From a virus (Duplodnaviria > Caudoviricetes): DNA of 64,000 bases. The DNA lies in the IMG/VR virus record IMGVR_UViG_3300025875_000014, positions 3,840-67,839 of that record, one strand, 5' to 3'. The translations under genes were made by a program, and so were the position numbers. Every line of letters starts with the position of its first letter. The first letter of the stretch is position 1. The notes below the pieces were generated by a model, which was not told the origin of the DNA, did not search any database, and was given only the letters and a program-made list of their open reading frames with translations. Below are positions 2,593 to 63,024 of this stretch, in pieces.

Positions 2593-2888
2593 CAGGGCTC
2601 GCGCTTCTCGACCAGCAGCAGAAGTTCGAGCACGGCTGCGTAAGCCTCACCCGAAGCCTTGTGGCAGGCGCGCTCGGTCCGGCTCGCCGTAGTGGATGCA
2701 GCGGCCACGAACTTCTGGGCGGCAGCCATTGCCCGAACCATGCCGATCACCTCGGCCAGCGTCGGCAGGGGTTCGGCATTAAGCCGCTTGGACCCGCTGC
2801 GGATAGGGAAAGGGTTGTCGAGGTGCGGCTCAGCCTCTGCTGCGGCTGCCCTCAGCGCATTCAACCGCGCCGTGACTTCTTCGTTCAT
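2592..2888 (-). CDS. hypothetical protein
   Basis: ATG at 2888 overlapping the GH113 stop. Confidence 0.6.
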   Translation of the reverse strand: MNEEVTARLNALRAAAAEAEPHLDNPFPIRSGSKRLNAEPLPTLAEVIGMVRAMAAAQKFVAAASTTASRTERACHKASGEAYAAVLELLLLVEKREP

Positions 2889-3937
2889 CTCGGAACCTTC
2901 CCGCCGAAGTACCCGGCGATCGTCTTCTCGGCAGGCTTCCCCTGCCACGAGAACGACGTGTCCGCCGCCCCACCATCCGTGGTCGCATTCATCGTGCGGT
3001 AAAGCATTACACCGTCAACCTCAGACCATCCTTCCACCGTGTGCAGCAGAGCATGAAACCACCGCTCCTGCACCTTCAGATCCACCTTCGCCGCCGCAAC
3101 CTCAGCCGGCGTCTTAGCGAACCGGTCATCCCACGCAATCGACCGCAACCCCGTCTCAGCCAGCACGATCCGCTTCCCGTACCGCTTCTTCGCCGACTTG
3201 AACTCGCCATGATCCTGCGCAAGTTTCCGCTTCAAGTCCCCGTAGGTCGCGCCCTCCTTCGGCACACGCGGATACCAAGTCGCCGAGATGTAGTCGAGCT
3301 TCTTGACCCACTTCGGATCCAGCAGCAGCAACTCGTCCCCCGTGTGCGCGGCGTACGTCAACTTCATCCGCCGCCCAGGGTCAGCCGCACGCAGAGCCGC
3401 GATCGTCTTCAGCCACCGCGCCGTGTTGCCCTTCGCCGTCATCCCCTTCTGCTCGATACCGATGATCAGCGTGTCCGCACCCTCATCGAGACCGATCCCC
3501 TGGTACTTCAGCAGCCACTTCGTCCACTCGCGGAACTCCACATCCGACCCGGGAATCTTCGCCCGCCACGAATGATCGACCAACTCCAGATGCGGCGCGA
3601 TCACCACACCCAAGCCGCACGCTCGAGCGTTGCGGATCGCCTGACGGAACTGCACATCCGTCGCCGTCGGCTCCACGTTCTTCTTCGCCTTCCGCTTCGT
3701 GATCACCCGCGACGTCGGCGTGTCCTGGATGAGGACCGGGTTCAGCGTGACGTGGTTTAAGCCCGTCGTCTTCAGGTCGCAGTAGACGGCCTTCACGCTG
3801 GCCGAGTCGAGCTGCTGGCCCGGCATCGCCTGGATGTTCGCCGACTGCATGTGGTTGCCCTTCACGTCCGCGTGAGCAGGCACGGCGACAGCAGCGAGGA
3901 CGAGGCCAGCAGCGAGGGCCGGGAGGATGCGCTTCAC
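2885..3937 (-). CDS. secreted glycoside hydrolase, GH113/GTA TIM-barrel-like (beta-mannanase-like)
   Basis: Sec signal MKRILPALAAGLVLAAVAVPAHA; LIIGIE (acid/base Glu), LTYAA, ISATWYP, VLAETGLRS (nucleophile Glu), FSWQGKPAE. Confidence 0.75.
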   Translation of the reverse strand: MKRILPALAAGLVLAAVAVPAHADVKGNHMQSANIQAMPGQQLDSASVKAVYCDLKTTGLNHVTLNPVLIQDTPTSRVITKRKAKKNVEPTATDVQFRQAIRNARACGLGVVIAPHLELVDHSWRAKIPGSDVEFREWTKWLLKYQGIGLDEGADTLIIGIEQKGMTAKGNTARWLKTIAALRAADPGRRMKLTYAAHTGDELLLLDPKWVKKLDYISATWYPRVPKEGATYGDLKRKLAQDHGEFKSAKKRYGKRIVLAETGLRSIAWDDRFAKTPAEVAAAKVDLKVQERWFHALLHTVEGWSEVDGVMLYRTMNATTDGGAADTSFSWQGKPAEKTIAGYFGGKVPR

Positions 3938-4401
3938 GAACGGACCATCCCTTGCCGAGATGCCATCTTGGCGTATCGGTCGTAGATGACGATGGAACCC
4001 GCTACGGCGACGTTCATCGACTGCGGCGCAGGGGTAGGAATCTGCACAAGGTGATGACAGCGGTCAGTCACTGCGGGCGGCAGGCCGTGGTCCTCAGCGC
4101 CGAGCAGGTAGATTCCGCGCTCCGGGTGCGTGAAGTCGTTTAGCATCCGCGCTCGCGGGTCCAGTTCGACGCCGATGAGTGGAGCCGAGAAGGGCAAGTG
4201 CTTGATCAGATCCGAGAGGTCTTCGAAGTGGAACAGCGGCTTGTGCTGCGGGGTGTTCATCGTGTCCGCCGCACGGCGCTGATAACGCAAGCCGACCGTG
4301 AAGACGAACGCTGCTCCGTAGAGGTTTGCCGTTCGGTAGAGGCTGCCGACATTTACCTCGGTCTTCGGGTGGTAGACGCCGATGGCGAAGTACCCCCTCA
4401 C
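3934..4401 (-). CDS. SpoU/TrmH-family (SPOUT) RNA methyltransferase
   Basis: NVGSLYRTA, LLGAEDHGL and IP...SMNVAVAGSIVIYD SPOUT motifs. Confidence 0.9.
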   Translation of the reverse strand: MRGYFAIGVYHPKTEVNVGSLYRTANLYGAAFVFTVGLRYQRRAADTMNTPQHKPLFHFEDLSDLIKHLPFSAPLIGVELDPRARMLNDFTHPERGIYLLGAEDHGLPPAVTDRCHHLVQIPTPAPQSMNVAVAGSIVIYDRYAKMASRQGMVRS

Positions 4402-5051
4402 GAAAGGTTCGCCACGTCGGAGGCCACGTGCTCACCGACCACCCGGTAACCAGCGTCTGAAGGATGCCCGGTGGCCTGGTCGACGTAAGGGTTGTCCTTC
4501 CACGCAATGCCCGGTCGAAACCAGCCCTCGCCGATCGCGTCGATGAACGGCACATCCGCAGCCCACGCCGCAGCCCGGAGCTTGTCGTTCACCTTCACCG
4601 TCGCCGCATCCGGTGTACCCGAGATCGCAGTCGGACCCACGACGACGATCAGCGCCGACGGATACCGCTTCTTCGCGGCCTTCAGCGTCATGTTCGCGTT
4701 CGACGCCAGCGTGCTCACATACGCCTTGTCGTTCGTCGACCCTTGGAGGATCACCACGTCGTACGCATCCGCAGGGTGACGGTAGACGCGCTGGCCGAAC
4801 GTGTTGTCGCCGTACGTCGTCCGGTTCACGTAGCCGCTGCCCCCCTTCCCATCCTGCGTCAGCGGCATGCCGAGCAGAGACGCAGTGACGGGAGCCCAGC
4901 CGAGGCCGTTACTCGAGACGCGGTCGCCGACACCCTCCGTCCACGAATCGCCGATGACGAGCAGGCTGTCAGTGGCAGCCTCAGCCGGGACCGCCACCGT
5001 CAACGACGCGGCGATCAGGGGCAGGGCTAGCGGGGCGAGGGTGTGCTTCAC
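4398..5051 (-). CDS. secreted SGNH/GDSL hydrolase (esterase/deacetylase)
   Basis: signal peptide ending PAEA; blocks IGDSW, GGSG, QGSTND, GHP. Confidence 0.85.
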   Translation of the reverse strand: MKHTLAPLALPLIAASLTVAVPAEAATDSLLVIGDSWTEGVGDRVSSNGLGWAPVTASLLGMPLTQDGKGGSGYVNRTTYGDNTFGQRVYRHPADAYDVVILQGSTNDKAYVSTLASNANMTLKAAKKRYPSALIVVVGPTAISGTPDAATVKVNDKLRAAAWAADVPFIDAIGEGWFRPGIAWKDNPYVDQATGHPSDAGYRVVGEHVASDVANLS

Positions 5052-5287
5052 GACTCGCCCTGGTTTGCGGCGCGGACCTTCGTGGCTGCCTCGATACACT
5101 CGCGCGCGATACGTAGCAGTTCCATTTCCGTCAGGGGAACTCTCACAACCCGCGATGACTTGCCGACGAATAGCGCCAGCTCGGGGCGGGGGTGGTGTCG
5201 AACATGGCGTCGCGTCTCGGGGTCAAGCGTCTCCGTGGGGGCTTCAATGCGCCCTAGGCGGTACTGAGGTTTTGCTTGTACGTTCAT
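5048..5287 (-). CDS. hypothetical protein
   Basis: GTGA overlap with SGNH gene. Confidence 0.55.
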   Translation of the reverse strand: MNVQAKPQYRLGRIEAPTETLDPETRRHVRHHPRPELALFVGKSSRVVRVPLTEMELLRIARECIEAATKVRAANQGES

Positions 5288-10077: not shown

Positions 10078-10081
10078 CCGC

Positions 10082-10367: not shown

Positions 10368-10375
10368 GCTAGACG

Positions 10376-12689: not shown

Positions 12690-12697
12690 GCAACGGC

Positions 12698-14397: not shown

Positions 14398-14398
14398 T

Positions 14399-24538: not shown

Positions 24539-24546
24539 GAGACGCG

Positions 24547-25062: not shown

Positions 25063-25065
25063 CCA

Positions 25066-26150: not shown

Positions 26151-26161
26151 ACGGGAGTGAC

Positions 26162-26761: not shown

Positions 26762-26789
26762 TGCCTGATTTTGAGAGGGGTTGACCCGA

Positions 26790-28094: not shown

Positions 28095-28126
28095 CTCCTT
28101 ACTCATTCTCCTAAGGAGAAACAGTC

Positions 28127-47709: not shown

Positions 47710-48087
47710 TCAGACCCTCCACTCCGGCTGGTAGTCCGGGTGATCGGCATAAGGTAGGGCGAGAAGGCGTACGGCGTCGCTGCTGGCGTCTTCCCAGCCT
47801 GATTCGTATCCGCCTTCGTAGTTGGGGAACTGGGCGGTGCCCTCGACCTGGCTCAGCGCCACGATCCGCCGCTTGGCCTCGCACTCAGCCAGCACGCGGA
47901 AAGGGTCGTGCTTGGCGATGTGCTCGGCATACGCCACGCGTACGGGATGAGAAACAAGAGCATTGGCGGTGCCCACCTCTCCGTCGCTGTCGTGTTCCCA
48001 AATTGTGTAACCAGACGCGGCGTCGCAATCCGCGGCGGCTTTCTCGTCTTCGGCGATGCGTGCAAGCAGAAACTCGGCGAGGGTCAT
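47710..48087 (-). CDS. DUF6221-like protein (antisense)
   Basis: MTLAEFLLARIAEDE, DPFRVLAECEAKRRIV, LALPYADHPDYQPEW. Confidence 0.8.
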   Translation of the reverse strand: MTLAEFLLARIAEDEKAAADCDAASGYTIWEHDSDGEVGTANALVSHPVRVAYAEHIAKHDPFRVLAECEAKRRIVALSQVEGTAQFPNYEGGYESGWEDASSDAVRLLALPYADHPDYQPEWRV

Positions 48088-48121
48088 GCCTCATCATCTC
48101 GCACTTACACTGGACGGAGGC

Positions 48122-50143
48122 GTGTTGGACGTCCGCGTTTTGTACGGAAATTGTTACGGCGGTTACTCGCTCCACGACGACGACCGCAAGGTCAACGGCA
48201 AGGACTACGCCCAGCGCGTCCCCCTACTCGTCAACCTGATCGTCAACTCTGGTGCGCACGTCTTCCTCGCGGTTGAGATCCACGAAGAGACCAGCTCGTC
48301 GTTCGGTGCCGCTGGCAGTGGGCACAAGTACCTGCTGAACGCGCTCAAGGCTGTCGATCCGGACTGGGCGCTACTTGAGGGGCGTGCGGGCAACCACTGC
48401 TACTACAAGCCGAGTCGTCTCGACGCGATCAGCGCGACGAACAAGAATATGCCCGGCTCAAGGTCCATGACGGACTTTGTGCTGCAGGACTCGGCTACCG
48501 GCTACCAGTGGCACAACGTCCTCGCGCACTTCCGCGCCGACGACAAGGACTACTACACCCCGAAGACGCACCAGAAGCGCAAGGGCAAGGAACGCACCAA
48601 GGAGCGCCGCCAGCAGGCTGAGTTCGTGGTCAAGTACACGGCGAACCTGCAGCGGGCGATCATCGCTGGTGACTTCAACTCGTCGACCGATGCGTCTGGG
48701 TATCCTCGCGCGATCTTCAAGGCGGCCGGTTTCCAGGGTCTTCGTGCTCGATCGACAACGCCAGTGGTGAACAAGGACCGGTCGACGCGTTCCACGAACT
48801 CGAAGGCGAAGTTCTGGATCGAGGACATCGAGACGCGCAAGACGCAGACGGTGTCGAACGCGGCGCTGATCCTGACGAACGGCGCATCGGACCACAACGG
48901 TTGGCTTGTTGCGACGATCACGTGGTCGGACGCTGGCGTTGCTGCGGTGCAGGCGGGGCTGCGGCCTGTCACGTCGTCGCTGGCGGCGACGTACGCGGGT
49001 CTACCGTGGACTGCTCGGGTGCGGAACCCCGACCTGTCGCTGGGTGTACCGCTGTCGTTCACGCGAGCTGAGCTGGTCGAAAACTACTGCGCGCCGAGTA
49101 TGTTGACGCTCACCGGTCGCACGTCTGATCTTGAGGCGGGCGCGAACATCGGCACGGGCGTGCTGATGACGGACGATCAGGGTGGCGTGCGCTGCTCGGG
49201 TCCGCTCGTCAACTTTGTGCGGCGTGGCAACAAGACGATGACGCTGGTCTACCGCAGCGATGCTGTGGAGGCTGCCGGTCGGATTGTGTGGCCGTCGCCG
49301 CTGGGTGCGTGGTCGAAGGCGGGCCAGGTTGCGGCGTACCACGTCGTGTCGGGCACGGCGGAGACGCGGCTACTCACGTACCTGTCGCTACACCTGGGCC
49401 CGAGTGCGCGGGTCGAACGGCGCTTGTCGGCCCTGCGGCTGCCTCTCACCAAGGAGCGCGGGCCGACGGCGGTGACGTCGGCTCGGTTCGACATCCTCGG
49501 TGAACTTATGGGCGTCCTCGCAGAACTGGCTGGTCTGCACTTCGGGATTCGGCAGGCGTACGACGGGATGACGCCGTATCGCGAGTTCTACCTAGACGAT
49601 GCTCCGGACTTGTCGGAGTGGGCCCGTTTCGGAACGCCCGAGTCGGGTGGCCCGTACATGCTCAGCAGCGACTGGTCTTACTCGGGCGGGCTGGGTGCGA
49701 CGACGATCCTTGGCGCGGCTGGTGGCGAGGGGTCTGACCGGATCCTCAACGCTGTCACCGATACCGATACGGAGGCCCTGTGGCATCGCCGGGTCGAGTA
49801 CTTCCTTGACCAGCGCAGTCAGACCGACCCCACCGAGATAGCTGAGGGTCTGGCGAAGGCGCTGCTCGACAAGGCCGGCGCGTCTGACGTGTCCGTGCCG
49901 CTGGGCAGCGTTCCCGGTATCGGCACGACCATCCCGATCGGCGCTCGAGCGTCTGCGGTCCTCGATGGGCAGTTGGTCACGGACCGGATCCGCCAGATCA
50001 CTACGGTGCTGTCGTCGGAGAACGGCGCAGTTCCTACGCAGGTCGATGCCGTCCTCGGTTCCCCCGATGCAGGCGTGAAGTCCCCGACGTGGCGTCAGCT
50101 TCAGCAGATGCTGCGCCGCATTAGGGAACTGGAGCGCCGCTAA
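48122..50143 (+). CDS. EEP (endo/exonuclease/phosphatase) domain fused to Gp37-like baseplate/minor tail protein
   Basis: GGAGG RBS; N-terminal LYGN, AVE, AHF, IAGDFNS, SDH; C-terminal region with GGEGSDR, RVEYFLDQR typical of ReqiPepy6 Gp37-like proteins. Confidence 0.8.
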   Translation: MLDVRVLYGNCYGGYSLHDDDRKVNGKDYAQRVPLLVNLIVNSGAHVFLAVEIHEETSSSFGAAGSGHKYLLNALKAVDPDWALLEGRAGNHCYYKPSRLDAISATNKNMPGSRSMTDFVLQDSATGYQWHNVLAHFRADDKDYYTPKTHQKRKGKERTKERRQQAEFVVKYTANLQRAIIAGDFNSSTDASGYPRAIFKAAGFQGLRARSTTPVVNKDRSTRSTNSKAKFWIEDIETRKTQTVSNAALILTNGASDHNGWLVATITWSDAGVAAVQAGLRPVTSSLAATYAGLPWTARVRNPDLSLGVPLSFTRAELVENYCAPSMLTLTGRTSDLEAGANIGTGVLMTDDQGGVRCSGPLVNFVRRGNKTMTLVYRSDAVEAAGRIVWPSPLGAWSKAGQVAAYHVVSGTAETRLLTYLSLHLGPSARVERRLSALRLPLTKERGPTAVTSARFDILGELMGVLAELAGLHFGIRQAYDGMTPYREFYLDDAPDLSEWARFGTPESGGPYMLSSDWSYSGGLGATTILGAAGGEGSDRILNAVTDTDTEALWHRRVEYFLDQRSQTDPTEIAEGLAKALLDKAGASDVSVPLGSVPGIGTTIPIGARASAVLDGQLVTDRIRQITTVLSSENGAVPTQVDAVLGSPDAGVKSPTWRQLQQMLRRIRELERR

Positions 50144-51445: not shown

Positions 51446-54400
51446 ATGGCCCGTAACCTGTATTCGCCCATTTTCGTCCAGCTCGCTGGTACCGCCCTGC
51501 CCGCGCCGAACCTGCCGTTCACCGTGTGGACGGATCTGACGACCGGCACGAACGTCACCGCCCAACTCGTCATCCCCGACGGCACCGCTGCCTACTCCGC
51601 GGTCACGGACAGTCAGGGCAACATCGCGCCCTTTCGTGGCCCCGACGACTACGTGGGCAACCTCTTCGTTGACACGGGCGCCTCGTACCGCTTCCAGCTC
51701 GACTCGCCGACGCTACTCGACTACCTCGTTACAAACGCTCAGTCGGGCGGCGCGAACGGTGTCACCGACCACGGTGCCCTGTCTGGCCTCGGCGACGACG
51801 ACCACCCGCAGTACCACACGGACGCTCGCGGCGACTTGCGCTACTACACGCGGGCGCAGTCTGACGGCAACGTATCGTCGGCCGTCTCGGCGTCGTCGGC
51901 CGAAGATCGCAAGCGTTCAAATCACTCGGGCACGCAGCTTGCCTCAAGTATCAGCGACTTCACTCCCGCCGTCCAGGCCGTCCCCGGCTTCGGCGGCGGT
52001 ACTACTTCGGTGGCTGACGGTTCGGTCACGGATGCAAAGGTCGTCGCGGGCCGCTCCCTCATTGGCTCCACAGCCGGCTGGGAAGCACTCCAGGACCACC
52101 TCGGCACCACGTTCCTCCAGGGCGGTTCCTACGACGACGCAGCGGGCACGTGGACGCCGATTGCGGGTGGCGGCGGAGGCGGGTCCAACTCTGGTGTCGA
52201 CGTCTACGCATACGGCTTCCGCACCACGAACACGCGCGACCAAAACGGCACCGCTCTCCTGTCCGCCGTTGGTGCTGCGGGCAAGCGTCCCGTCTACTGC
52301 TCGGTGCCCGGTCGCTACCCCCTCGCGGTGACGTTCGCCAACGAGGACATCAACCTCGACCTCTCGAGCGTTACCCTCATTCACCCGCAGGTAGCGGGCG
52401 ACATGAAGCCGGTCATCACCGTTGAGCGGTCGTTCAGCACCCCGCAGGCGGTCGGACCCACCCGCGTCGTCGAGTGGGGTCCTCGCCTCACCGGTGGCGT
52501 GTCCTGGTCCGCGAAGTACACGGCGATCGACCTCACCTCGGGTGGGTACTCCGCGTACAAGGGTGGCGACCTCATTCATATCTCGTCGGGTGACGTGTAC
52601 CCGTGGGCGTGGACCGCGATCAAGGCTCCGCTGACGCAGACGACGGGGCTCGTCTACCAGGCTGAGTTCCTGCCCGTCCTCGGCATCGGCATGCTCGTCG
52701 TCGCCACCACCAACGGTGGACCCCGTGAGCAGATGATGGTGCAGGGCTCCCTCTCCGGTGCGACCGGCCTCATCCAGTCCGACCTTGTGGGGAACGGCAA
52801 CGGCGGCATCACCGCCACACAGGCACATATCACGTTCGCTGCTGTTTCGGGTGACTTCCAGGACGGCGACGTACTCACCCGTACAACCGGCGGCAACCCT
52901 GACGGTGGCGCAGGCACGTTCGCCGCAGTCGGACAGGCAGTCGGCACCGTCTCTGGCGCGCCCATGCTGCTGATCAACAAGCTCCTCGACTACCAGTACG
53001 GCGTCGTCTCCGCGGCACAGGCTAGTCCGGGCACGCAGAAGCCGCTCCAGACGAACACGACAGTCCGCGTCCGCCGCGTCGACCGCACGAGGGTCTGCAA
53101 CATCCGCGCCAACTTCGACATCGACGGCGTGGCCGGCGACCAGGACAAGTACGTCACGGACGCGTCGCGCATCGACATGATGAAGCTGCGCGGCGTGTTC
53201 ATGCCGAACGTCGATGCCCGCGTTCACAACTCGTGGACGCGTTCGATCGTCGTCACGTCCTGCTTCCAGGGCCGTTTCCGTGCGATGTTCGACGGACTTC
53301 CGAACCACGCCTACCTCGACCAGGAGGGCTTTGGCTACGGGTTCGAGTGCAAGTCGGCTAGCAACGGCAACGTCTTCGAGTACGTTGGGCGGAACCTGCG
53401 GCACTCGTTCACGACGAACCCGAACCAGCGGACGTTCAGCACTGGCGACGCCAGCCACATCGACTACGGCACGCCGATGGACAACACTGTTCAGAACTCG
53501 GTTGGGTTCGCCACCTACACCAACACTTTCGACACTCACGCGGGCGACCTCCGGACCCGGTTCGTCAACTGTATCGCGGTTGGTGGCGGTTCCGGTGGTC
53601 GGTACAACTCGGACGGTGGTGCGCAGTTCGCGTCTCGCGGGTTCGCTACCGAGTGGGTCAACTGTAAGTCGGTCAACAGCGTCGAGGGCATCGACTACCT
53701 GGGTGGCGAGCACGACCCCGGCATCGACCACACCGTCATCGTCAAGGACGCCCACGTGCTCGGGTTCCAGGCGCGCGGGTTCTTCGCCACTGACGCCATC
53801 ACCGACCACTGCTCGATCGTCATCGACGGCGGCAGGTTCATCGGCGATGGTTCACCGACCGGCCAGCAGTACACGCACGAAGCCATCGCCCTCGGCAAGG
53901 GCATCAAGCTCACCATCAAGGGTGAAGTTGAGGTGGGCGGCTTCAACGGCTTCCCGATTCGCATGCGCGAGGCTGGCACGGCTGGGATCCAGTCCGAGCT
54001 CGACATCATCAGCATGCTCATCGACTACCGGGGCACGACCACCAGCAACGCGCAGGGCATCCGCGTGGACGGCACCCTGGCCCGCGCGAACTATGAGGGC
54101 ATCACCCTGCGGCTCGCGTCGGGCAGCATCCCCGGTGGTTTGATCACGAACCGTGGCGGCTCAACCGTCCACAACATCGGCCGTGTCGTTCCGTTCGGCC
54201 TCGCCGGTCGTACGCTCCCGGTCCTCCAGACGGCCAGCCAGGCAGGCACCCCGACGCAGACGGTCCTCACCGATCTCGTCGGTAGCGGTGGCGGCAGCGG
54301 AAGCGGGACGGGCAGCGGGACTCAGGTCACCGTTGACGGCGTGCCCGTGTCGACGTTCGACGTCAGCTCTACTCCGGTCGTGCAGACGTTGACGATCGGC

Positions 54401-54862
54401 GCGGACATCGCTGGTCCCACGGCGGGTACGACGATCGCGAACCTGTCGCAGTTTCAGACGCGACTCGAGACTGGCGCATACATCGTCGAGGCGGCGCTGT
54501 TCTACCAGCAGTCAGTGATCTCGGCGGGTGCACTGCGGTTCGGTCTCGGCGGGCCGGGTGCTGCGGGTGCGTCGATCACGAACGTCCTCGTTGACCAGAA
54601 CACGTCGGTCACGGCCAAGTCGGCTGGGTTCGTCAGCGTTCTCGGGTCGGCTGGGAATGCGGTCGTGACGACCGCTGGCTCGGCGAATGTTTTCGGACTC
54701 TCTGCTGGTACGGCTGCGACGACGCTGCCGATCCTCGTGAAGGGACGCATCCTCGTCACCAGTGCTGGCACGCTCGGCCTCATGTGGGGGCAGTCGAACG
54801 GTGCGACGTCCGCGGCCACGCTGAAGGCCGGGTCGTACATCACGTTCACGAAGGTGTCCTGA
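51446..54862 (+). CDS. tail spike/fibre with putative right-handed beta-helix (depolymerase)
   Basis: DHGALSGLGDDDHPQY fibre motif; long Gly/Asn/Thr-rich beta-helix-like central region (FDTHAG). Confidence 0.7.
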   Translation: MARNLYSPIFVQLAGTALPAPNLPFTVWTDLTTGTNVTAQLVIPDGTAAYSAVTDSQGNIAPFRGPDDYVGNLFVDTGASYRFQLDSPTLLDYLVTNAQSGGANGVTDHGALSGLGDDDHPQYHTDARGDLRYYTRAQSDGNVSSAVSASSAEDRKRSNHSGTQLASSISDFTPAVQAVPGFGGGTTSVADGSVTDAKVVAGRSLIGSTAGWEALQDHLGTTFLQGGSYDDAAGTWTPIAGGGGGGSNSGVDVYAYGFRTTNTRDQNGTALLSAVGAAGKRPVYCSVPGRYPLAVTFANEDINLDLSSVTLIHPQVAGDMKPVITVERSFSTPQAVGPTRVVEWGPRLTGGVSWSAKYTAIDLTSGGYSAYKGGDLIHISSGDVYPWAWTAIKAPLTQTTGLVYQAEFLPVLGIGMLVVATTNGGPREQMMVQGSLSGATGLIQSDLVGNGNGGITATQAHITFAAVSGDFQDGDVLTRTTGGNPDGGAGTFAAVGQAVGTVSGAPMLLINKLLDYQYGVVSAAQASPGTQKPLQTNTTVRVRRVDRTRVCNIRANFDIDGVAGDQDKYVTDASRIDMMKLRGVFMPNVDARVHNSWTRSIVVTSCFQGRFRAMFDGLPNHAYLDQEGFGYGFECKSASNGNVFEYVGRNLRHSFTTNPNQRTFSTGDASHIDYGTPMDNTVQNSVGFATYTNTFDTHAGDLRTRFVNCIAVGGGSGGRYNSDGGAQFASRGFATEWVNCKSVNSVEGIDYLGGEHDPGIDHTVIVKDAHVLGFQARGFFATDAITDHCSIVIDGGRFIGDGSPTGQQYTHEAIALGKGIKLTIKGEVEVGGFNGFPIRMREAGTAGIQSELDIISMLIDYRGTTTSNAQGIRVDGTLARANYEGITLRLASGSIPGGLITNRGGSTVHNIGRVVPFGLAGRTLPVLQTASQAGTPTQTVLTDLVGSGGGSGSGTGSGTQVTVDGVPVSTFDVSSTPVVQTLTIGADIAGPTAGTTIANLSQFQTRLETGAYIVEAALFYQQSVISAGALRFGLGGPGAAGASITNVLVDQNTSVTAKSAGFVSVLGSAGNAVVTTAGSANVFGLSAGTAATTLPILVKGRILVTSAGTLGLMWGQSNGATSAATLKAGSYITFTKVS

Positions 54863-57800
54863 TGCCGGGTCGCGTCCTGTTCGTCCCTGGTCGTGGTGTC
54901 GTCGACATCCTCGACGGCGGCTGGACGGAGAGGGACGCTGCAGCGCCGCCCACATCCGGCGGCGGAGTGGTCGTACTGTCGTCGACTCTTGATGCTGCGA
55001 CGGTGGCGAATCCGATCAGCCTCACCGACATGCGGACGTTCATCGGCGCCAACTACGGCGGTGCCACGAACTACCAGTACACGTCGGTCGTCTCCACGAT
55101 CGGTACGGGTGGCACGACGTCGAAGGTGCTGAACCAGTACATGCGCGCTGGTACGTGGGGGATGCCCGGCGGTACCGGTAACGGCACCGGCATCGCGCTC
55201 ACCTCGACGCCGCTCAAGGGCGGTGCGGTTGACGAGGCGTCGATCGAGTTCGACATCCGGTTCGTCGGGTCGGGCCAGTGGGATCTCGGCGGGAAGATCC
55301 CCGGGCTCGGTGGTCTGCTCCCCGGTCAGAGCGGTGGCATCCCTACCGGTGGCACGCCGTCGATCTACGGCTGGTCCGGGCGCAGCATGTTCCGCCGCAA
55401 CAACGCGGCCCCCACGGTTTCCGCGAACTGGGTCGGCTACATGTACGACCCGACGCAGCCCGCGAACCAATACGGGCAGGACCGTGCGACCGGGCAGCTC
55501 TTCACCTGGGGCACGTGGGTCCACGTCAAGCAGGCGTACAAGATGAACACGGTCACCACGGAGGGTTCGACTAACCCCCCGGCAGACGGCGTGCACCGCA
55601 TGTGGTTCAACGGGAATCTCGTCTACGAGAACACGTCGCAGGTGTTCCGCTACTACAAGGCCGCGAACATCACCGGCATAGTGTGGGACAACTTCTGCGG
55701 CGGCAACGACGTCTCGTTCGCCGTCCCGAACGACTTCAACATCCAGTTCGACAACCTCGTCATCACGACCGGTGCGGGAAGCAGCGACGTGGGCGGCTCC
55801 GTACCCGTCGGTGACACGACCGCACCGACGACGCCCACCAACGTCGTTGCATCGAACATCACGAGCAGCGGCTTCGACCTCGCCTGGGGAGCCTCAAGTG
55901 ATGCCGTCGGGGTCACGTCGTACAGCATCCAGCTCAACGGCTCCACCTACACGACGAGCCCCACGAACAGCGCGACCCTAGACGGCCTGACGAACGGCAC
56001 GGCCTACTCGGTGCGGGTGACGGCTCGGGATGCGGCGGGGAACTTCTCAGGCCTGTCGACGGCTGTCACGGTGACGACGGCTGCAGCGTCAGCCGCTACG
56101 GGCACGCCGCTGCCGTTGTGGGCTGCGCCGGTCGGCGTCAACTCGTACGTCGCCGCGAACCCTGACCTCCAGGTCATCTCCGACGTCCCCCACGCCGCGT
56201 GGGTTGGGGACTGGATGTCGACGTCAACTGTGCAGAACACCGTGTCGGGATATCGGACGTCTGCAGCGGGGACGACCATCGCCTTGTGCGTGTACGCCAT
56301 CCCGGGCCGCGACTCCGGGGGCTACTCCGCCGGAGGGTTCCCAGACCGGGCGTCGTACCTGGCGTGGGTGACGAACGTGAAGAACGGCATGGCGAACGCA
56401 CCATTCCTTGTCGTGTACGAGCCGGACGCGCTCGGACTCGCCCGCAACCTGAGTCAGACGGTGAAGGACGAGCGCATCGAAACGATGCGTCAGGCCGTGA
56501 ACATCCTAAAGGTCGGTGCTGCGACGGAGGTGTACGTCGACGCGTCGATGTGGGTCCCGGCGGCGGAGCAGGCAACGCTGCTGCAGGCGGCCGGTGTCTC
56601 CGTGTGCCACGGGTTCTCGATCAACGTGTCGAACTTCAACGACCAGGCCACGTGCTACGCATACGGCAACGCTGTCGTGTCCGCGCTGAACGGATTAGGG
56701 ATCACGGGGAAGAAGTTCGTCGTCGACTCGAGCCGTAACGGCAACGGGTCGTTGACGACAAGTTTTCCCGGGTCGGCGCCGTGGTTCAACACGTCTCAGA
56801 CGTGGTGCAACCCGCCCGGACGTGGCCTCGGGTTGACCCCGCAGGTTCCGGCTGACCAGCCGGACTGTCGGGCGACGCTGTGGGTGAAGGACCCTGGCGG
56901 TTCGGACGGAACGTTCCCGACGGCCGCCCAGTCCACCTATTTCGGGGAGAACGCTCCGGCTGCGGGCAGTTTCTGGGTGAAGTACGCCCGCGACATGATC
57001 GCCAACACCAGCACTCCGAGGCCATATTTTCAGCAGGCTGACTGGCTATGGCAGGCGCTGCCTCCGAACCCGGTCCTCGATGCAAACTCGTCAACGTGGG
57101 TCGGCTACCTGTCGGAGGCCGGGAAGCAGCGCGGCCTGGCGCTCGTCGACTACTCGACCGCACTCAGCCAGGCGACCGCATCCACTCCGCGCTACGACAT
57201 CACGTTCGCCAACGTGCCCGCGTGGGGGCCGGACCCGTTCCCCGACAACATGCCCGTCCCGAACGGGCAGATCGTCCCCCCGGGCACAGACGGTCACGTT
57301 GCTGTCGCGGACCCGACGACGAACCGCGTCTACTCGCTGTGGCAGGCGACGCCCACGCCGAACCCCCGCAGCGCCACCTACGGCGGACTGGCCGCGCTCA
57401 ACGGCAACGGTATCGAGACGGCGGGCTCAAGCACGGCGGGCAACCTGTCCCGCTATGCCGCCGTGATCCGAGCTGCCGACCTCACCGCAGCAGCGGCGGC
57501 AGGCACGGGGCTTCCCTATGCGCTGTTCTGCTCGTCCGACGTCGTGGGCACCTCGTTCCGCGCGCCGTCCACCAAGGCTGACGCGACCGCCAACAACGCC
57601 AACGTGGCAACCCCGATCCCGAACGGGGCGCGGATCTTCCTCGACCCGACGATCAACGTGGACGCCATCCCCAGCATCACCGCCGGCGAGAAGGTCATCG
57701 CTCGGACGCTCCAGCAGCGGGGCGCATACCTGGCCGACAAGGGCGGGTCGCGGCTCGGGTTCATCTGCGAACTTCAGCCGGACGGCGTCTCCGGTGGCAC

Positions 57801-57906
57801 ACCAGGCGCGGCGTACACGGCCCTCGGCTGGAACTGGGACTACTTCAACATGACTCATATCCCGTGGGGATCACTCCGCGTGACTGCTAACTCGAGCGGC
57901 ACCTGA
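54862..57906 (+). CDS. multidomain virion CAZyme: jelly-roll polysaccharide-lyase-like + Fn3 + GH6 cellulase + unknown C-terminal domain
   Basis: GGKIPGLGG/WSGRSMF (lyase-like); DTTAPTTPTN...Y.VRVTARDAAGN (Fn3); YAIPGRD, YEPDAL, SINVSNF, VDSSRNG, WCNPPGRGLG, WVKDPGGSDG (GH6). Confidence 0.85.
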   Translation: MPGRVLFVPGRGVVDILDGGWTERDAAAPPTSGGGVVVLSSTLDAATVANPISLTDMRTFIGANYGGATNYQYTSVVSTIGTGGTTSKVLNQYMRAGTWGMPGGTGNGTGIALTSTPLKGGAVDEASIEFDIRFVGSGQWDLGGKIPGLGGLLPGQSGGIPTGGTPSIYGWSGRSMFRRNNAAPTVSANWVGYMYDPTQPANQYGQDRATGQLFTWGTWVHVKQAYKMNTVTTEGSTNPPADGVHRMWFNGNLVYENTSQVFRYYKAANITGIVWDNFCGGNDVSFAVPNDFNIQFDNLVITTGAGSSDVGGSVPVGDTTAPTTPTNVVASNITSSGFDLAWGASSDAVGVTSYSIQLNGSTYTTSPTNSATLDGLTNGTAYSVRVTARDAAGNFSGLSTAVTVTTAAASAATGTPLPLWAAPVGVNSYVAANPDLQVISDVPHAAWVGDWMSTSTVQNTVSGYRTSAAGTTIALCVYAIPGRDSGGYSAGGFPDRASYLAWVTNVKNGMANAPFLVVYEPDALGLARNLSQTVKDERIETMRQAVNILKVGAATEVYVDASMWVPAAEQATLLQAAGVSVCHGFSINVSNFNDQATCYAYGNAVVSALNGLGITGKKFVVDSSRNGNGSLTTSFPGSAPWFNTSQTWCNPPGRGLGLTPQVPADQPDCRATLWVKDPGGSDGTFPTAAQSTYFGENAPAAGSFWVKYARDMIANTSTPRPYFQQADWLWQALPPNPVLDANSSTWVGYLSEAGKQRGLALVDYSTALSQATASTPRYDITFANVPAWGPDPFPDNMPVPNGQIVPPGTDGHVAVADPTTNRVYSLWQATPTPNPRSATYGGLAALNGNGIETAGSSTAGNLSRYAAVIRAADLTAAAAAGTGLPYALFCSSDVVGTSFRAPSTKADATANNANVATPIPNGARIFLDPTINVDAIPSITAGEKVIARTLQQRGAYLADKGGSRLGFICELQPDGVSGGTPGAAYTALGWNWDYFNMTHIPWGSLRVTANSSGT

Positions 57907-58409
57907 TGGCCCCGCACCGGCTGAAGTCGAGGCTTGATCTGCGCAAGGAAGCAGCGGGGTTCACCCCGCCAACGTTCCGGTTCTGGCTCATCGCCCGCAC
58001 CCCCACTGTCCTCATCGACAACCTCCTCGAAGTGCTCGCGGCGATCGTTGGCCTGATCCTCGGCCCAGCGTTCATGACGGGATTCGTCGCCACCCCCGTG
58101 TCGAACCAGATCTCCGTACCTGTGACGATGGCGTTGAGCTGGGTCCTCATCATCGGAGGGGTCGTCGTATTCATCGGACTCCTCATCATGAAGTACGGGA
58201 CGACAGTTCCGGCGGGGATGTTCATGCTCGCCGGCGGCTTCCTCTGCTATGGGGTGGCGGTCATGGCGTACGCGGAACTTCGGGTCGGCTTGGTGACGCT
58301 GGTCCTCCTCGTCGGCCTCGCGGCCCTCACCGCATGGAAGGGTTTCCTGTTGCGGTCTACATTCCTGCTCGTCTCTGCCCGGCCGGTTCCTACGGACCAC
58401 AAGGGCTGA
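57906..58409 (+). CDS. 4-TM membrane protein (possible holin-associated)
   Basis: four hydrophobic segments. Confidence 0.65.
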   Translation: MAPHRLKSRLDLRKEAAGFTPPTFRFWLIARTPTVLIDNLLEVLAAIVGLILGPAFMTGFVATPVSNQISVPVTMALSWVLIIGGVVVFIGLLIMKYGTTVPAGMFMLAGGFLCYGVAVMAYAELRVGLVTLVLLVGLAALTAWKGFLLRSTFLLVSARPVPTDHKG

Positions 58410-58413
58410 GCGG

Positions 58414-58827
58414 GTGGACGTCACCGCAATCCTGCTCGTCATACTCGGGATCCCCAGCACCGGAGGTCTGTTTGTTGCAGCCAGAGCGGCTATCCGTTGG
58501 CTCAGCAAGGGCCGCAAGGGCCGACGGGCTGAGGTTGAGTCGAGGCGCATCCACGACGACGTAGCCGCAGCCAATGCGAGCGTGCTTGTTGTCGCTCAGT
58601 CGCAGCAGCAGCTCGTCGCCGACAACGCTCGCCTTCGGGTCCAGCTAGCCGAGTCCGACGCCCGTCATGCGGCAGAGCGCGCGGAGTGGATGGCCGACAA
58701 GGCTCAGATGCGCGCCGAGATCGACGACATGGAGATCCGCCTGCGCACGGCGATGGACCGCCTCAACGAGGCCCTCGCCGAAGTCCACGAATGGCGACGC
58801 AAGCACGGATCGGACACCGCAACGTGA
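58414..58827 (+). CDS. membrane-anchored coiled-coil protein
   Basis: N-terminal TM then heptad-rich helix; common in actinophage lysis regions. Confidence 0.65.
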   Translation: MDVTAILLVILGIPSTGGLFVAARAAIRWLSKGRKGRRAEVESRRIHDDVAAANASVLVVAQSQQQLVADNARLRVQLAESDARHAAERAEWMADKAQMRAEIDDMEIRLRTAMDRLNEALAEVHEWRRKHGSDTAT

Positions 58828-59165
58828 GTGCTCGTACATGGCAGGTGTGGGCTCACGTCCAGGAGTGGATCGACGGCGACACCTGGAAGGGCTACGTCGA
58901 CCTCGGCTGCCACGTGTACCTAGGTACCAGCGACAGGCCCATCCGCTTCCGGTGCAGCCTGATCAACGCACCAGAGAAGAGCGCGGGCGCGGCGGGTGCA
59001 GAGTCGACTGCCTACGCCCGTTCACTGGTACCGCCCGGTGACTACCCGGCCACATCTACGGGGCTCGATAACTACGGTAGGCCGCTCGTGGACCTGCATC
59101 TACCCGACGGGCGCTTGTTCAGCCGCGCGATGCTAGACGCTGGATTTGCAGTCCTTTACCGCTAG
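58824..59165 (+). CDS. thermonuclease (SNase)-like protein
   Basis: WIDGDT, INAPE, DNYGRPL, MLDAGFA. Confidence 0.8.
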   Translation: MSARTWQVWAHVQEWIDGDTWKGYVDLGCHVYLGTSDRPIRFRCSLINAPEKSAGAAGAESTAYARSLVPPGDYPATSTGLDNYGRPLVDLHLPDGRLFSRAMLDAGFAVLYR

Positions 59166-60899: not shown

Positions 60900-62291
60900 G
60901 TGGTCATCCTCGCCGTACCCCGCACAGCCGGCGCGCCCTCAGGTCTGACGGGCGCACACATCACCGCTGCCCTCAAGGCCGCCGGTGCGGGCTCTGGGCT
61001 CGTCATGCCCGCCAGTCAGATCGCCGTCGCGTTCAACGATGCGATCAGCAAATATGGCGGCGGCCTGTTCACCACCATCAACTCCTACGCGGCGCTCGTC
61101 TCCGAGTGCATGATGGAGTCTGCCTACTTCCGCACCACCGCCGAGTACGCGACCACTGGCCCTTACCAGCCGTACAAGGGGCGCACGTTCATCCAGATCA
61201 CCTGGAAGGACAACTACGCCGCGTTCGGCAAATGGTGCTTGTCCGTCGGCCTCGTCACTGATGCGGACTACTTCGTGAAGAACCCGACCAAGCTCGCCGA
61301 CCTCAAGTGGGCTGCGATCGGCGGCGTCTGGTACTTCACCAAGGTCCTGAAGAAAGACAAGCAGGGCAACCTGCACCCGATCGTCTGGTGGGCCGACGAC
61401 CCGCTCGCCATCGGTCGCGCCGTCAACATGGGCAACCCGTACAGCACTGCCACGCCCAACGGTCAGAAGGCACGCGACGCCGCCTACGTTGCCGTCGTCA
61501 AAGCGCTCACCGCAACCCCACAGGAGCCAGACGTGTCAGTCGCTTTCCGTGGTGGCCGCACCTGTTCGTGCGTCGCCACCAGCCTCCCCCTCGTCGAGAG
61601 GGACATGATCAGACGAGGCTTGATCAAGTACAACATCGACGTCTACCAACTCGGCTACCGCAACGACGTCAGCGCCTCTGCCGGCACGCATGCGGGTGGA
61701 GGGAACACCGACGTCGCCCAGTTCTCCGACGCGCAGATCGACGTGTGGCGGCTCTGGGGCTGGACTATCCAGCACCGCACCAAAGCCCAGGGGTTCGACA
61801 TGGACCACGGGCACGGCTGGCCGCTCGGCTGCGACCACCTGTCCGCTGGTGGTCGTGCGCAGGCCACGCAGTGGGCGAACCGTCAGAACGGACTCGCCAG
61901 CAAGGGACGCGTCGAAGGCCGCTGGCCGATCGACGACTGGAAGACCGCCATGAAGAAGCGGCAGGCGGAACAGCAGGCACGCGACGACGCGGCAGCCGAA
62001 GCCGAACGACAGAAGGAGCTTGAGTTGCCCACGACCAAAGAGGTTGGCGACTACCTCGCCACGAACGACAAGTTCCTCGACGCGATCGCCAAGAAGGTCG
62101 CCGAGGCAGTGTGGAACGCCGACGTCATCCCGAACGCTGGCGTCCTTACGTCGAACGTCGACAACGTGAACGTCTCCCCGAAGACGGCACTGACGCAGAT
62201 CGGCAAGAAGATCAACGACGCGAACGCCGACCTGGACGCTCTGTCCGCCCGGTTTCCCAATCCCAGCCCCGAGCCCCCTCCCGCCGCTTGA
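60900..62291 (+). CDS. endolysin: GH19-like glycosidase + M15-like Zn peptidase + C-terminal domain
   Basis: ECMMES...EY, YKGRTFIQITWKDNY (GH19); SASAGTHAGGGNTD...H (M15-like). Confidence 0.85.
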   Translation: MVILAVPRTAGAPSGLTGAHITAALKAAGAGSGLVMPASQIAVAFNDAISKYGGGLFTTINSYAALVSECMMESAYFRTTAEYATTGPYQPYKGRTFIQITWKDNYAAFGKWCLSVGLVTDADYFVKNPTKLADLKWAAIGGVWYFTKVLKKDKQGNLHPIVWWADDPLAIGRAVNMGNPYSTATPNGQKARDAAYVAVVKALTATPQEPDVSVAFRGGRTCSCVATSLPLVERDMIRRGLIKYNIDVYQLGYRNDVSASAGTHAGGGNTDVAQFSDAQIDVWRLWGWTIQHRTKAQGFDMDHGHGWPLGCDHLSAGGRAQATQWANRQNGLASKGRVEGRWPIDDWKTAMKKRQAEQQARDDAAAEAERQKELELPTTKEVGDYLATNDKFLDAIAKKVAEAVWNADVIPNAGVLTSNVDNVNVSPKTALTQIGKKINDANADLDALSARFPNPSPEPPPAA

Positions 62292-62295
62292 GCCG

Positions 62296-63024
62296 CTGAC
62301 GTTCAGTGCGTTCCAGTTCAACGCGCGCTGGCCGGGGTTCTCGAGCACACCCGCGTCCCCGTCGTGGGCGGTCCGTATGCCGATGCTGGTCGCTCGGGCG
62401 AAGGCATCCAAGGCGTCGGTCCTGATCGTGCAGGAGTTGGGCGCAGACCAGGCGCCCGGCTTCTTCGCCGCGATGGGCTCCGACTGGCACTACGACCGAG
62501 CCGGTCTGAACGTCGTCGGCTGGGACACGCGGCAGTGGACGTGGCAGGCGAGCAACCCGCTGGACTTGTCCTCGTTCGGGCAGATGCAGCGGACCCTGAT
62601 CGCGGTGACCTTACAAGAGTTAGAAGGGTTTAGCGGATCCGACAAAAACGGGTCAAGACTCGGCCGGTTCGCCAGCACCCACCTTGCTGCAGCAGCCTCT
62701 GACCTGACGGAAGCCAGAGCCATCGTGGCAAGGGCTACGCAAGCCGCTGAGGTCGCAGGAGCACTCGCCCTAGCTCCAGTACCCACCCTGCTCGGCGCCG
62801 ACTGGAACAGCCGCGCAGCTACCGACAGTGGACCCTCAGCCCCCCGCACCATCCTCGGTGCGCTCGGCTGGACGTTCGACTCAACCCCGCTCGCCGCCGA
62901 TGCCAAGAAGGGCATCGACGGGACCGCCGCCAACTACGGCATGGGCATCACCAGCAGCCAGGTCGTCGACCTCGGCACAGCATCCGACCACGACGGCCGC
63001 CTGGTCGTCGCCACCACCCAGTAG
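62296..63024 (+). CDS. EEP-superfamily phosphodiesterase in the lysis cassette
   Basis: TFSAFQFNAR...W..R...IVQEL, STH, GADWNS, IDG, SDH; first ATG (62377) lies inside the domain. Confidence 0.75.
   Translation: MTFSAFQFNARWPGFSSTPASPSWAVRMPMLVARAKASKASVLIVQELGADQAPGFFAAMGSDWHYDRAGLNVVGWDTRQWTWQASNPLDLSSFGQMQRTLIAVTLQELEGFSGSDKNGSRLGRFASTHLAAAASDLTEARAIVARATQAAEVAGALALAPVPTLLGADWNSRAATDSGPSAPRTILGALGWTFDSTPLAADAKKGIDGTAANYGMGITSSQVVDLGTASDHDGRLVVATTQ

Follow-up and report, generated by a model that had tools for sequence, protein, structure and literature searches.

The window, that is, the whole stretch of DNA analysed here, covers 64 kb of a 67.8-kb IMG/VR contig from an uncultured, high-GC, siphovirus-type actinophage, whose portal is 34% identical to portals of Rhodococcus, Gordonia and Mycobacterium phages. 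As judged from its sequence, it encodes sugar-polymer- and phosphodiester-cutting domains in unusual number and variety, distributed over the tail, a fibre-like module, the lysis genes and secreted proteins:

2885..3937, minus strand: GH113-like TIM-barrel glycosidase, 350 aa, predicted secreted; closes a leftward operon
3934..4401, minus strand: SpoU-type RNA methyltransferase (Pfam PF00588, E 5.7e-22)
4398..5099, minus strand: SGNH/GDSL hydrolase, predicted secreted (Pfam PF13472, E 7e-18)
23903..29020, plus strand: fibre-like gene module, upstream of the terminase
29024..30682, plus strand: 552-aa alginate-lyase-like protein (Pfam PF05426)
43594-46749: tape-measure gene, 1051 aa
46740..47708, plus strand: Dit-like (distal tail protein) gene
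48056..50143, plus strand: Tal-position protein
~48122-49000: its N-terminal EEP phosphodiesterase-like domain
~49055-50020: its Gp37-like tail domain (Pfam Sipho_Gp37, E 3e-26)
51446..54862, plus strand: tailspike, 1138 aa, with a central right-handed beta-helix (~residues 250-920 of the model)
54862..57906, plus strand: tail-module protein, 1014 aa
~55117-55758: its PL14 lyase-like domain (Pfam, E 7e-19)
~55831-56067: its Fn3 domain (Pfam, E 3e-10)
~56158-56928: its GH6 domain (Pfam, E 5.5e-45)
~57016-57903: its conserved C-terminal domain, ~300 aa, fold unassigned
57906..58827, plus strand: two membrane proteins between tail and lysis genes
58824..59165, plus strand: SNase-like (thermonuclease-fold) protein, 113 aa
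59173..59985, plus strand: papain-like cysteine peptidase, 270 aa
60900..62291, plus strand: LysA-type endolysin; N-terminal domain GH19-like, C-terminal end rich in proline
62290..63024, plus strand: second EEP phosphodiesterase-like domain, flanked by the endolysin and holin-like genes
63032..63283, plus strand: holin-like protein, 83 aa, with hydrophobic spans (translation judged by eye)

All domains named in the initial annotation were recovered at or near the same places (GH113, SGNH, PF05426, spike, PL14-Fn3-GH6, two EEPs, SNase-like, papain-like and GH19-type endolysin), with their catalysis being predicted. Position and sequence are also consistent with the four proposed modes of deployment: a tail-tip module that follows the tape-measure and Dit genes, a putative second appendage whose fibre-like genes have a fibre motif in common with the spike, Sec signal peptides on the GH113 and SGNH proteins, and a lysis cassette that includes a holin-like gene. 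The purpose ascribed to the set, a specialisation on biofilm- or EPS-embedded hosts in which polysaccharide, phosphodiester polymer, extracellular DNA and protein are dissolved by tail, second appendage, secretion and lysis, appears unlikely to us, and we weigh it below against the individual results.

The tail module runs in the order tape measure, Dit, Tal-like protein, spike and GH6 protein, with the Dit-like gene (weak Pfam matches to Sipho_tail and SPP1_Dit) directly after the tape measure anchoring the tail-tip module. The tailspike gave no match in the Pfam search. An AF2 model based on an 11-sequence alignment was confident for residues 250-920, and Foldseek matched it to beta-helix tailspike depolymerases (7w1c, 4ru4, 9k4a and 4y9v), including the Klebsiella K1 capsule lyase 7w1c (E 3e-13), LKA1 gp49 and the K64-1 and AP22 tailspikes; metagenomic homologues reach 69% identity. 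The spike may thus combine a capsule or wall-polysaccharide depolymerase with receptor binding. Klebsiella phage PhiK64-1 and other multi-depolymerase phages carry several virion-borne polysaccharide-degrading proteins; they multiply one fold, the beta-helix spike, and thereby cover a Gram-negative host's various capsule types. The present phage resembles them in its several predicted polysaccharide-degrading proteins and in the modelled right-handed beta-helix of its spike, but it is an actinophage and combines unrelated folds and mechanisms (GH6, PL14, PF05426, GH113, SGNH and EEP).

The best PDB match of the 1014-aa protein was CelA1/Cel6 of Mycobacterium tuberculosis (PDB 1uoz, 1up0; E 6e-41), the closest solved GH6 enzyme; T. 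fusca E2 (1e-33) and the PL14 alginate lyase 5gmt (1.8e-7) were matched as well. GH6 signature motifs were seen in its translation, and its C-terminal domain recurs in P0016 at 43% identity. We expect this protein to cut uronic-acid-containing and beta-1,4-linked glycans. Cellulose is a reported component of mycobacterial biofilm, and the proximity to CelA1 therefore speaks for the biofilm reading. Envelope and biofilm matrix polymers overlap, cellulose being an example, and sequence cannot fully separate the two readings. Another actinobacterial GH6 enzyme, Streptomyces CslZ, has as its substrate a cellulose-like glycan at the apex of the cell that makes it, and also takes part in wall remodelling (PMC9040799). 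CelA1 and CslZ are cellular enzymes, secreted or lipoproteins, whereas the GH6 domain studied here lies inside a phage tail-module protein. Among phages, Erwinia phage S6 encodes the cellulases gp094 (GH48) and gp095 (GH5) and uses bacterial cellulose as its first receptor (PMC9544554). Both phages would encode a beta-1,4-glucanase, in S6 directed at a host with a cellulose-type surface glycan; however, S6 is a podovirus of a Gram-negative host with GH5 and GH48 enzymes, while our candidate belongs to GH6. Gp72 of Streptomyces phage Gilgamesh, annotated "glycoside hydrolase", is also a GH6 protein (30% identity over 270 residues) and is encoded by the last gene of that phage's tail module. In contrast to the protein described here, it is a 444-aa single-enzyme protein of a 129-kb phage and lacks PL14, Fn3 and the C-terminal domain; further enzymes shared between the two phages were not detected.

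The Tal-position protein joins its EEP domain to the Gp37-like tail domain. This EEP domain scored 16 bits with PF03372, below the Pfam threshold, and no stand-alone homologues of 161-513 aa were found for it. An hhalign comparison with the family of the second EEP domain nevertheless gave 97.7% probability (E 2.3e-12), with the motifs E, H, D-x-N and D-H aligned. By this alignment, the two domains are paralogues. Their positions, at the tail tip and in the lysis cassette, point to a wall-bound polymer that the phage would have to breach twice, when it enters and when it leaves. The Tal-position EEP would act on a phosphodiester-linked wall polymer of teichoic-acid or sugar-phosphate type, by analogy with the baseplate GDPD domains of other Gram-positive phages. 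Such phosphodiesterases, probably directed at teichoic-acid-type polymers, occur in the baseplates or tail modules of enterococcal phages and of Lactobacillus phage Ld17 (PMC10194240). Like these, our phage is predicted to carry a phosphodiesterase on a tail-tip protein; unlike the GDPD TIM barrel, the EEP fold is a four-layer sandwich, placed N-terminal to the Gp37-like domain and with a paralogue in the lysis cassette.

The second EEP domain had been counted in the matrix-degrading set, but a role in lysis explains it better than one against extracellular DNA or matrix. We found 45 homologues, the longer of which are fused N-terminally to GH25, Amidase_2, LysM or PG_binding_1. Together with its position between endolysin and holin, these fusions mark it as a probable lysis and cell-wall module, and an endolysin-family module within a lysis cassette argues against the biofilm reading. 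The family profile matches EEP structures in the PDB (E 1e-6), with the glycan-phosphate-specific mannosyl-6-phosphatase 4c1r among the top matches; PF03372 was passed by 16 of 29 homologues, and the ESM Atlas scored the domain 0.95 for EEP. Of the family's catalytic set, E81, H163, D203, D265 and H266 are invariant, and N43 and N205 near-invariant. It is read in the +1 frame with respect to the endolysin. In this frame no canonical start precedes the ATG at 62377, and homologue matches begin 5' of it, so that the domain may not be produced in this form.

The endolysin itself was identified by PHROG 317 (E 9.6e-30) and PDB 9hqw, "Endolysin A" (E 1.9e-15). Mycobacteriophage lysis cassettes follow the order LysA-LysB-holin; their LysB, a cutinase-like esterase, attacks mycolyl-arabinogalactan. 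Rhodococcus phage GuyFagieri likewise has genes annotated as lysin A, lysin B and holin. The order appears to be retained in our phage, with an endolysin, a second non-peptidoglycan enzyme and a holin, but an EEP phosphodiesterase-like domain takes the LysB slot. No LysB-like gene was found in the window, which argues against a mycolic-acid host.

Two neighbouring members of the proposed arsenal are better explained as ordinary accessory genes of actinophages. The SNase-like gene, whose GTG start overlaps the stop of the preceding gene, had been taken for a matrix DNase. Its product matches PF00565 with 22.3 bits (26 bits in a six-frame search; cut-off 21) and keeps Arg35, Glu43 and Arg87 of staphylococcal nuclease, but Asp40 and Thr41 of the calcium site are changed to Asn and Ala, and the protein has no signal peptide. 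The papain-like protein (PHROG 16701 "peptidase", E 3.7e-46; Pfam Peptidase_C1, E 1.3e-6) has an intact catalytic signature. A role as matrix protease does not fit its family, which is widespread, occurring in 53 actinophage records and mostly outside structural and lysis modules; among the mycobacteriophage matches listed, it lies at ~60 kb in 70-kb genomes, that is, at the far end. Of the biofilm interpretation, the placement of the enzymes thus agrees with the sequence, while for three members, including the second EEP domain, another explanation is more convincing. In the preceding membrane protein pair, a hydropathy scan showed one protein with four hydrophobic spans and one with an N-terminal span and a coiled coil.

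The genes of the candidate second appendage lie a long way from those of the tail, and sequence motifs suggest that it is part of the virion. Its genes at 23903 and 26781 have paralogous N-terminal domains (BLASTP, 47% identity, E 2e-44), the region 26781-28094 matches head-decoration, tail-fibre and tail-collar PHROGs, and the fibre repeat motif common to the gene at 26781 and the tailspike N-terminus reaches E 4e-9 (BLASTP). The module ends in the PF05426 protein, which begins with short, repeated strand motifs followed by an alginate-lyase-like alpha/alpha toroid domain (residues 120-552). This protein scored 25.8 bits with PF05426 (cut-off 22.2); all 30 of its nearest ESM Atlas clusters are PF05426, with a feature score of 0.95 and a structural TM of 0.78/0.83 across 361 residues. 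The module probably forms side fibres with further specificity.

The GH113 protein (Pfam PF22612, E 8.7e-23) has a clear N-terminal Sec signal peptide ending in AHA and weak PDB matches to GH113 endo-beta-1,4-mannanases (E 1e-4 to 9e-3). The SGNH hydrolase has a signal peptide followed by the GDS block, and its gene likely starts at ~5051. The SpoU-type methyltransferase gene between them is context and lies outside the arsenal. Two predicted secreted enzymes would suit a biofilm phage. They could also be auxiliary metabolic genes with which, possibly joined by GH6, a saprophytic actinobacterial host, while infected or lysogenic, degrades plant polymers of its surroundings such as acetylated mannan or cellulose. 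The mannanase matches would suggest this, as would the accessory operon, set apart from the structural genes, in which an esterase is paired with a mannanase and each bears a Sec signal peptide; a carbon-cycling role has been proposed for soil viral and prophage CAZymes (PMC13507307, PMC6460857). We nonetheless regard this as very unlikely. The GH6, PL14, beta-helix and PF05426 domains are all encoded within tail or fibre genes and lack signal peptides, domain searches of the window found none of the carbohydrate-binding modules that biomass enzymes typically have, and a soil virus survey assigns most viral CAZyme annotations to entry or lysis, that is, to core viral functions (bioRxiv 10.1101/2024.12.20.629349). 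Most likely, the two enzymes strip or modify surface glycan around infected or lysogenic cells, which would destroy receptors or free progeny.

We gauged rarity by tblastn against 50,697 phage records. The GH6 protein was matched in three of these and the GH113 protein in one; the spike, the PF05426 protein and the second EEP domain were matched in none, and the Tal-position protein matched phages through its Gp37-like part alone. With so few relatives for most domains, the combination is unusual, and this number and diversity of polymer-degrading domains favours the biofilm reading. Whether the set is "integrated", as had been claimed, is doubtful. In a relative on a single 9-kb contig, the spike (66% identity) and PL14-Fn3 (78%) are retained, but DUF4082 replaces GH6 and the C-terminal domain. 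Other metagenomic proteins combine the GH6 subtype with LamG and GH5, and on an unrelated contig the subtype adjoins a TMP-like gene. Retention of the spike with exchange of GH6 makes the set look mosaic, and independent swapping of modules among relatives weakens the biofilm reading. Taken further, the set could be a chance pile-up of mobile receptor-binding and enzyme modules, several of them inactive or binding-only and without common purpose, with which the altered SNase-like metal site and the start-less second EEP domain would agree. This is quite unlikely in our estimation, since catalytic signatures are intact in GH6, both EEPs and the papain-like protein, coincidence would hardly place two paralogous EEPs at the positions for entry and for exit, and several non-peptidoglycan functional genes occur here although such genes make up ~0.13% of the genes in a soil virus catalogue (bioRxiv 10.1101/2024.12.20.629349).

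On balance, we favour, with slightly better than even confidence, a layered toolkit with which the phage crosses and later leaves a thick, glycan-rich Gram-positive envelope, rather than a dedicated biofilm-matrix arsenal. From position and fold, we infer that three tail-tip proteins would act on surface polymers during entry, in series or in parallel. On exit, the GH19-type endolysin and the paralogous EEP, in the position of mycobacteriophage LysB, would be followed by the holin. One wall polymer may thereby be cut from the outside at entry and from the inside at lysis.

The linear IMG/VR virus record, of which the 64-kb window covers bases 3840-67839, is 67.8 kb long and has an estimated completeness of 84%. 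Genes were called by third-position GC and assigned by family searches (Pfam, PHROG), giving a normal siphovirus layout in which no tRNAs were found within the window. A contig chimera was ruled out by this gene order together with the GC content, which is even along the window (61-67%). Searching 50,697 phage records by megablast with the structural region returned no close relative, and no IMG/VR relatives were found with the Tal-position protein, the GH6 protein, P0014, or the metagenomic homologues P0011 and P0029 as queries; the portal shares approximately 34% identity with portals of Rhodococcus, Gordonia and Mycobacterium phages. The features considered here are as follows.

8.1 to 2.9 kb, minus strand: leftward accessory operon with a small serine recombinase inside
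2885-3937, minus strand: GH113 protein (PF22612, E 8.7e-23)
4398-5099, minus strand: SGNH protein (PF13472, E 7e-18)
After the leftward operon, plus strand: early and replication genes (methyltransferase, YqaJ-type recombinase, replication initiator, DnaB)
23.9-30.7 kb, ahead of the terminase: fibre-like module
29024-30682: lyase-like protein, 552 aa (PF05426)
Then in order: terminase, portal, protease, capsid, tape measure, Dit, tail-tip genes, lysis region
48056-50143: Tal-position protein, N-terminal EEP domain (EEP#1)
51446-54862: spike, 1138 aa
54862-57906, directly after the spike: GH6 protein with PL14 (E 7e-19), Fn3 and GH6 (E 5.5e-45) domains
58824-59165: SNase-like protein (PF00565, just above threshold)
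59173-59985: papain-like protein (PHROG 16701, E 3.7e-46)
60900-62291: endolysin (PHROG 317 and a solved "Endolysin A")
62194-63024: open frame of the second EEP domain (EEP#2)

The recombinase of the leftward operon is of the resolvase type (6686-7324, 212 aa), and neither the window nor the remaining 3.8 kb of the contig showed a large integrase.

The initial annotation had described these enzymes, from ten domains called by eye, as an integrated matrix-degrading arsenal of a phage specialised for biofilm- or EPS-embedded hosts. All ten calls were reproduced by profile, structure or motif evidence, and no further matrix-type enzymes came to light when the other larger ORFs of the window were scanned with PHROG and Pfam. 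The proposed placement of the enzymes also agrees with the sequence: the Tal-EEP, spike and GH6 protein genes follow those for the tape measure and Dit, a characteristic fibre motif is common to the fibre module and the spike N-terminus (E 4e-9), and the GH113 and SGNH proteins are predicted to be secreted.

At the tail tip, the fold of the spike emerged from structure prediction. Pfam gave no match to the protein, the Pfam Beta_helix profile matched nothing on the contig, and a PDB search with a spike profile was uninformative. An AlphaFold2 model built on 11 homologues was confident for residues 250-920 and matched six phage tailspike or depolymerase structures with a Foldseek probability of 1.0 (E 3e-13 to 1e-6); the best match was the Klebsiella K1 capsule lyase (E 3e-13), and LKA1 gp49, K64-1 S2-4 and AP22 gp54 were also among them. 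The modelled spike is a right-handed parallel beta-helix like those of phage tailspikes, and its metagenomic homologues share 66-69% identity with it. Among these homologues are P0028, P0029 and P0030, encoded on contigs of 60, 28 and 9 kb, respectively.

The GH6 protein encoded directly downstream combines two predicted carbohydrate-active domains. Its GH6 domain scored 154.9 bits against PF01341 (cut-off 27), with Mycobacterium tuberculosis CelA1 as the closest solved structure (E 6e-41). The E-P-D acid motif, P-G-x-S-D-G and P-x-R-D, which we take to be the GH6 signature motifs, are intact in the translation and invariant in an alignment of four homologues. The PL14 domain scored 68.8 bits against PF21294 (cut-off 27) and matched an alginate lyase structure (PDB 5gmt, E 1.8e-7). 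The last 300 residues (57016-57903) form a conserved domain with 43% identity to residues 324-618 of the metagenomic homologue P0016; it has no Pfam match and may be a further enzyme or a receptor-binding domain. An AlphaFold2 model of the whole protein from a seven-sequence alignment reached a mean pLDDT of 40.

The lyase-like protein of the fibre module lies narrowly above the PF05426 cut-off (25.8 versus 22.2 bits), no single stretch being sufficient alone. All 30 of its nearest ESM Atlas clusters by features are PF05426, and its Atlas model superposes on actinobacterial alginate-lyase-domain clusters over 361 residues with TM scores of 0.78/0.83. Profile and predicted structure together place it in the PF05426 alpha/alpha toroid family; a single-sequence phmmer search of the PDB gave no match. 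Its N-terminus (29024-29380) contains five to six copies of a strand-like T/I-V/I-P-Y-S/T-V-T motif separated by short spacers, for which no known match was found. Elsewhere in the module, the products of 23903-24538 and 26781-28094 have a common 160-aa N-terminal domain (47% identity, E 2e-44), which suggests two alternative fibres predicted to dock at the same site.

Of the two proteins predicted to be secreted, GH113 scored 81.5 bits against PF22612 (cut-off 27) across profile positions 22-286 of 289, carries a clear Sec signal peptide, and matched the PDB weakly, the matches being to solved GH113 mannanases. The SGNH protein belongs to the SGNH/GDSL family (PF13472, 66.2 bits, cut-off 32.9), with the block I GDS motif following its signal peptide and an Asp/His spacing in block V that is atypical by eye. 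The two genes are separated by an odd operon partner, a SpoU-type RNA methyltransferase gene (3934-4401) that overlaps each of them by 4 nt.

We assessed the rarity of these proteins by tblastn against the 50,697 phage records. The spike, the lyase-like protein and EEP#2 occurred in none of them, GH113 in one, and the GH6 protein in three, namely the two records of Streptomyces phage Gilgamesh, in which the GH6 gene likewise ends the tail module, and one faecal contig; for Tal, only the Gp37-like half matched. In a survey of 1.43 million soil-virus genes, non-peptidoglycanase functional annotations made up 0.13%, and just four genes were PL14 (bioRxiv 10.1101/2024.12.20.629349). The phage studied here encodes, among about 100 ORFs, four genes above curated CAZyme-type thresholds plus the spike and the EEPs, a concentration that is clearly unusual even though the comparison is rough. 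To our knowledge, phages with many depolymerases exist but multiply one fold. For three features we found no counterpart among the 50,697 sequenced phages: enzymes of unrelated folds mixed in a single actinophage, a tail protein in which a PL14 lyase-like and a GH6 hydrolase domain are joined, and EEPs present at the tail tip as well as in the lysis cassette.

Relatives of the tail proteins bear on whether the enzymes form one integrated set. A spike homologue (P0030) and a protein with 78% identity to PL14-Fn3 of the GH6 protein (P0011) both come from a 9,004-bp contig, and we infer from the identical size and source that this is one and the same contig. In P0011, a DUF4082 domain replaces GH6 and the C-terminal domain. 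The same GH6 subtype is joined with LamG or GH5 in other large metagenomic proteins. Scans for GH6 loci with a tighter alignment yielded a 1.3-kb Frankia fragment and, from metagenomes, just two loci. On an unrelated 75-kb metagenome contig (Ga0182232_1000015, region 9113-18966), a 789-aa GH6 protein of this subtype is encoded upstream of a tape-measure-like protein of 1911 aa, at a distance of two genes, and the contig probably represents a further uncultured phage of high GC that carries GH6 in its virion. The DUF4082 swap, the LamG and GH5 combinations and this locus imply that the modules move independently, which speaks against the integrated set originally proposed.

Two proteins encoded ahead of the endolysin fit the matrix reading poorly. 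The SNase-like protein, which is without a signal peptide, scored 22.3 and 26 bits against a cut-off of 21 over profile positions 1-82 of 107. Of the calcium-binding and catalytic set considered (Asp21, Asp40, Thr41, Arg35, Glu43 and Arg87), Arg35, Glu43 and Arg87 are kept in the alignment and Asp40 and Thr41 are replaced by Asn and Ala; a D-G-D-T motif is visible by eye upstream. The papain-like protein belongs to clan CA by PHROG 16701 and a partial PF00112 match (29.1 bits, cut-off 20.7), and its Cys, His and Asn motifs read G-S-C, G-G-H and N-S-W in the translation. This family is common, occurring in 53 actinophage records, and in the mycobacteriophages among the matches listed it is encoded at about 60 kb of 70-kb genomes, away from the virion genes in the left arm.

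Of all elements of the locus, the paired EEPs are the most novel. EEP#2 alone has no PF03372 match; 16 of 29 homologues pass this profile, and in the ESM Atlas the domain falls among EEP clusters (0.95). An exhaustive phmmer search yielded 45 homologues, all in clusters of metagenomic proteins. The EEP catalytic set (Asn43, Glu81, His163, Asp203, Asn205, Asp265 and His266) is invariant or nearly so in their alignment, and the family profile matches solved EEP enzymes (nocturnin, 1e-6; two EEP-family proteins; mannosyl-6-phosphatase; sphingomyelinase C). Profile homology and catalytic residues together place EEP#2 in the EEP superfamily. EEP#1, the N-terminal 290 residues of Tal, scored 16.2-16.4 bits against PF03372 and so missed the curated threshold of 24.5. 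With hhalign, it matches the EEP#2 family (97.7%, E 2.3e-12, 198 columns) with the Glu, His, D-x-N and S-D-H motifs in register, which identifies the two EEPs as paralogues. Single-sequence PDB searches were uninformative for both, and no stand-alone homologue (161-513 aa) of the Tal EEP domain was found. Both gaps beside the Tal-EEP gene contain minus-strand ORFs (47710-48087 and 50140-50490).

EEP#2 is flanked by the endolysin and an 83-aa holin-like gene (63032-63283), a slot that in mycobacteriophages is the position of LysB. Roughly half of the homologues reach 380-760 aa and have the EEP domain at the C-terminus, and the N-terminal parts found among the aligned homologues include GH25, Amidase_2, PG_binding_1 and LysM. 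By its sequence context, EEP#2 is a predicted lysis and cell-wall module rather than a matrix or eDNA enzyme. BLASTP detected no similarity between the endolysin of the window and these N-terminal parts, so the fused homologues do not carry this endolysin.

The start of EEP#2 is anomalous. Its frame has 61 open codons before the first ATG (62377), with no ATG, GTG or TTG among them; the homologues align from query residues 26-41 on, and the near-invariant catalytic Asn43 falls upstream of that ATG. The proline-rich end of the endolysin is shifted by one base relative to the frame of EEP#2, and in P0048, the closest metagenomic homologue (64% identity), the gene call likewise begins at the equivalent Met. 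This may reflect a +1 fusion, an unusual start or an assembly indel in a C-rich run.

Depolymerases carried on the virion are well known, as are two-enzyme lysis cassettes, and virion lysins and endolysins both cut peptidoglycan. With EEP#2 in the lysis slot and its paralogue on the tail tip, the simplest inference is a parallel arrangement in which the EEPs would cut one wall-bound phosphodiester-linked polymer at entry and at exit. GDPD domains in the tail modules of other Gram-positive phages offer a parallel to the tail-tip EEP (PMC10194240). Erwinia phage S6 is a documented case of phage cellulases, with cellulose as the receptor (PMC9544554), and actinobacteria produce a cellulose-like glycan, associated with the cell, on which the GH6 enzyme CslZ acts (PMC9040799).

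Based on these findings, the deployment routes originally proposed are plausible, while a biofilm-matrix purpose is conjectural for the set as a whole and unlikely for several members, namely EEP#2 and the SNase-like and papain-like proteins. The best reading of the enzymes is a layered toolkit for entry and exit through the envelope, put together by exchange of modules. We tentatively propose, as a conjecture that may well prove wrong, that the paralogous EEPs, one fused to Tal and one in the LysB slot and possibly +1-joined to the endolysin, represent a new class of phage enzymes cutting an actinobacterial phosphodiester-linked wall polymer at entry and exit, in a phage whose glycan-degrading domains, at least six and each of a different mechanism, would serve together to cross an envelope of several layers.

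For viral ecology, the locus calls for caution: by domain annotation alone, four or five of its genes would count as carbon-cycling "auxiliary metabolic genes", although most of these belong to the tail, fibre or lysis modules. A LysB-like gene, present in the nearest cultured relatives, was not found here, which weakly argues for a host without mycolic acids. If the EEPs cut teichoic-acid-type or sugar-phosphate wall polymers, they would constitute a new enzyme class for breaching actinobacterial walls and a functional analogue of LysB for hosts that lack mycolic acids.
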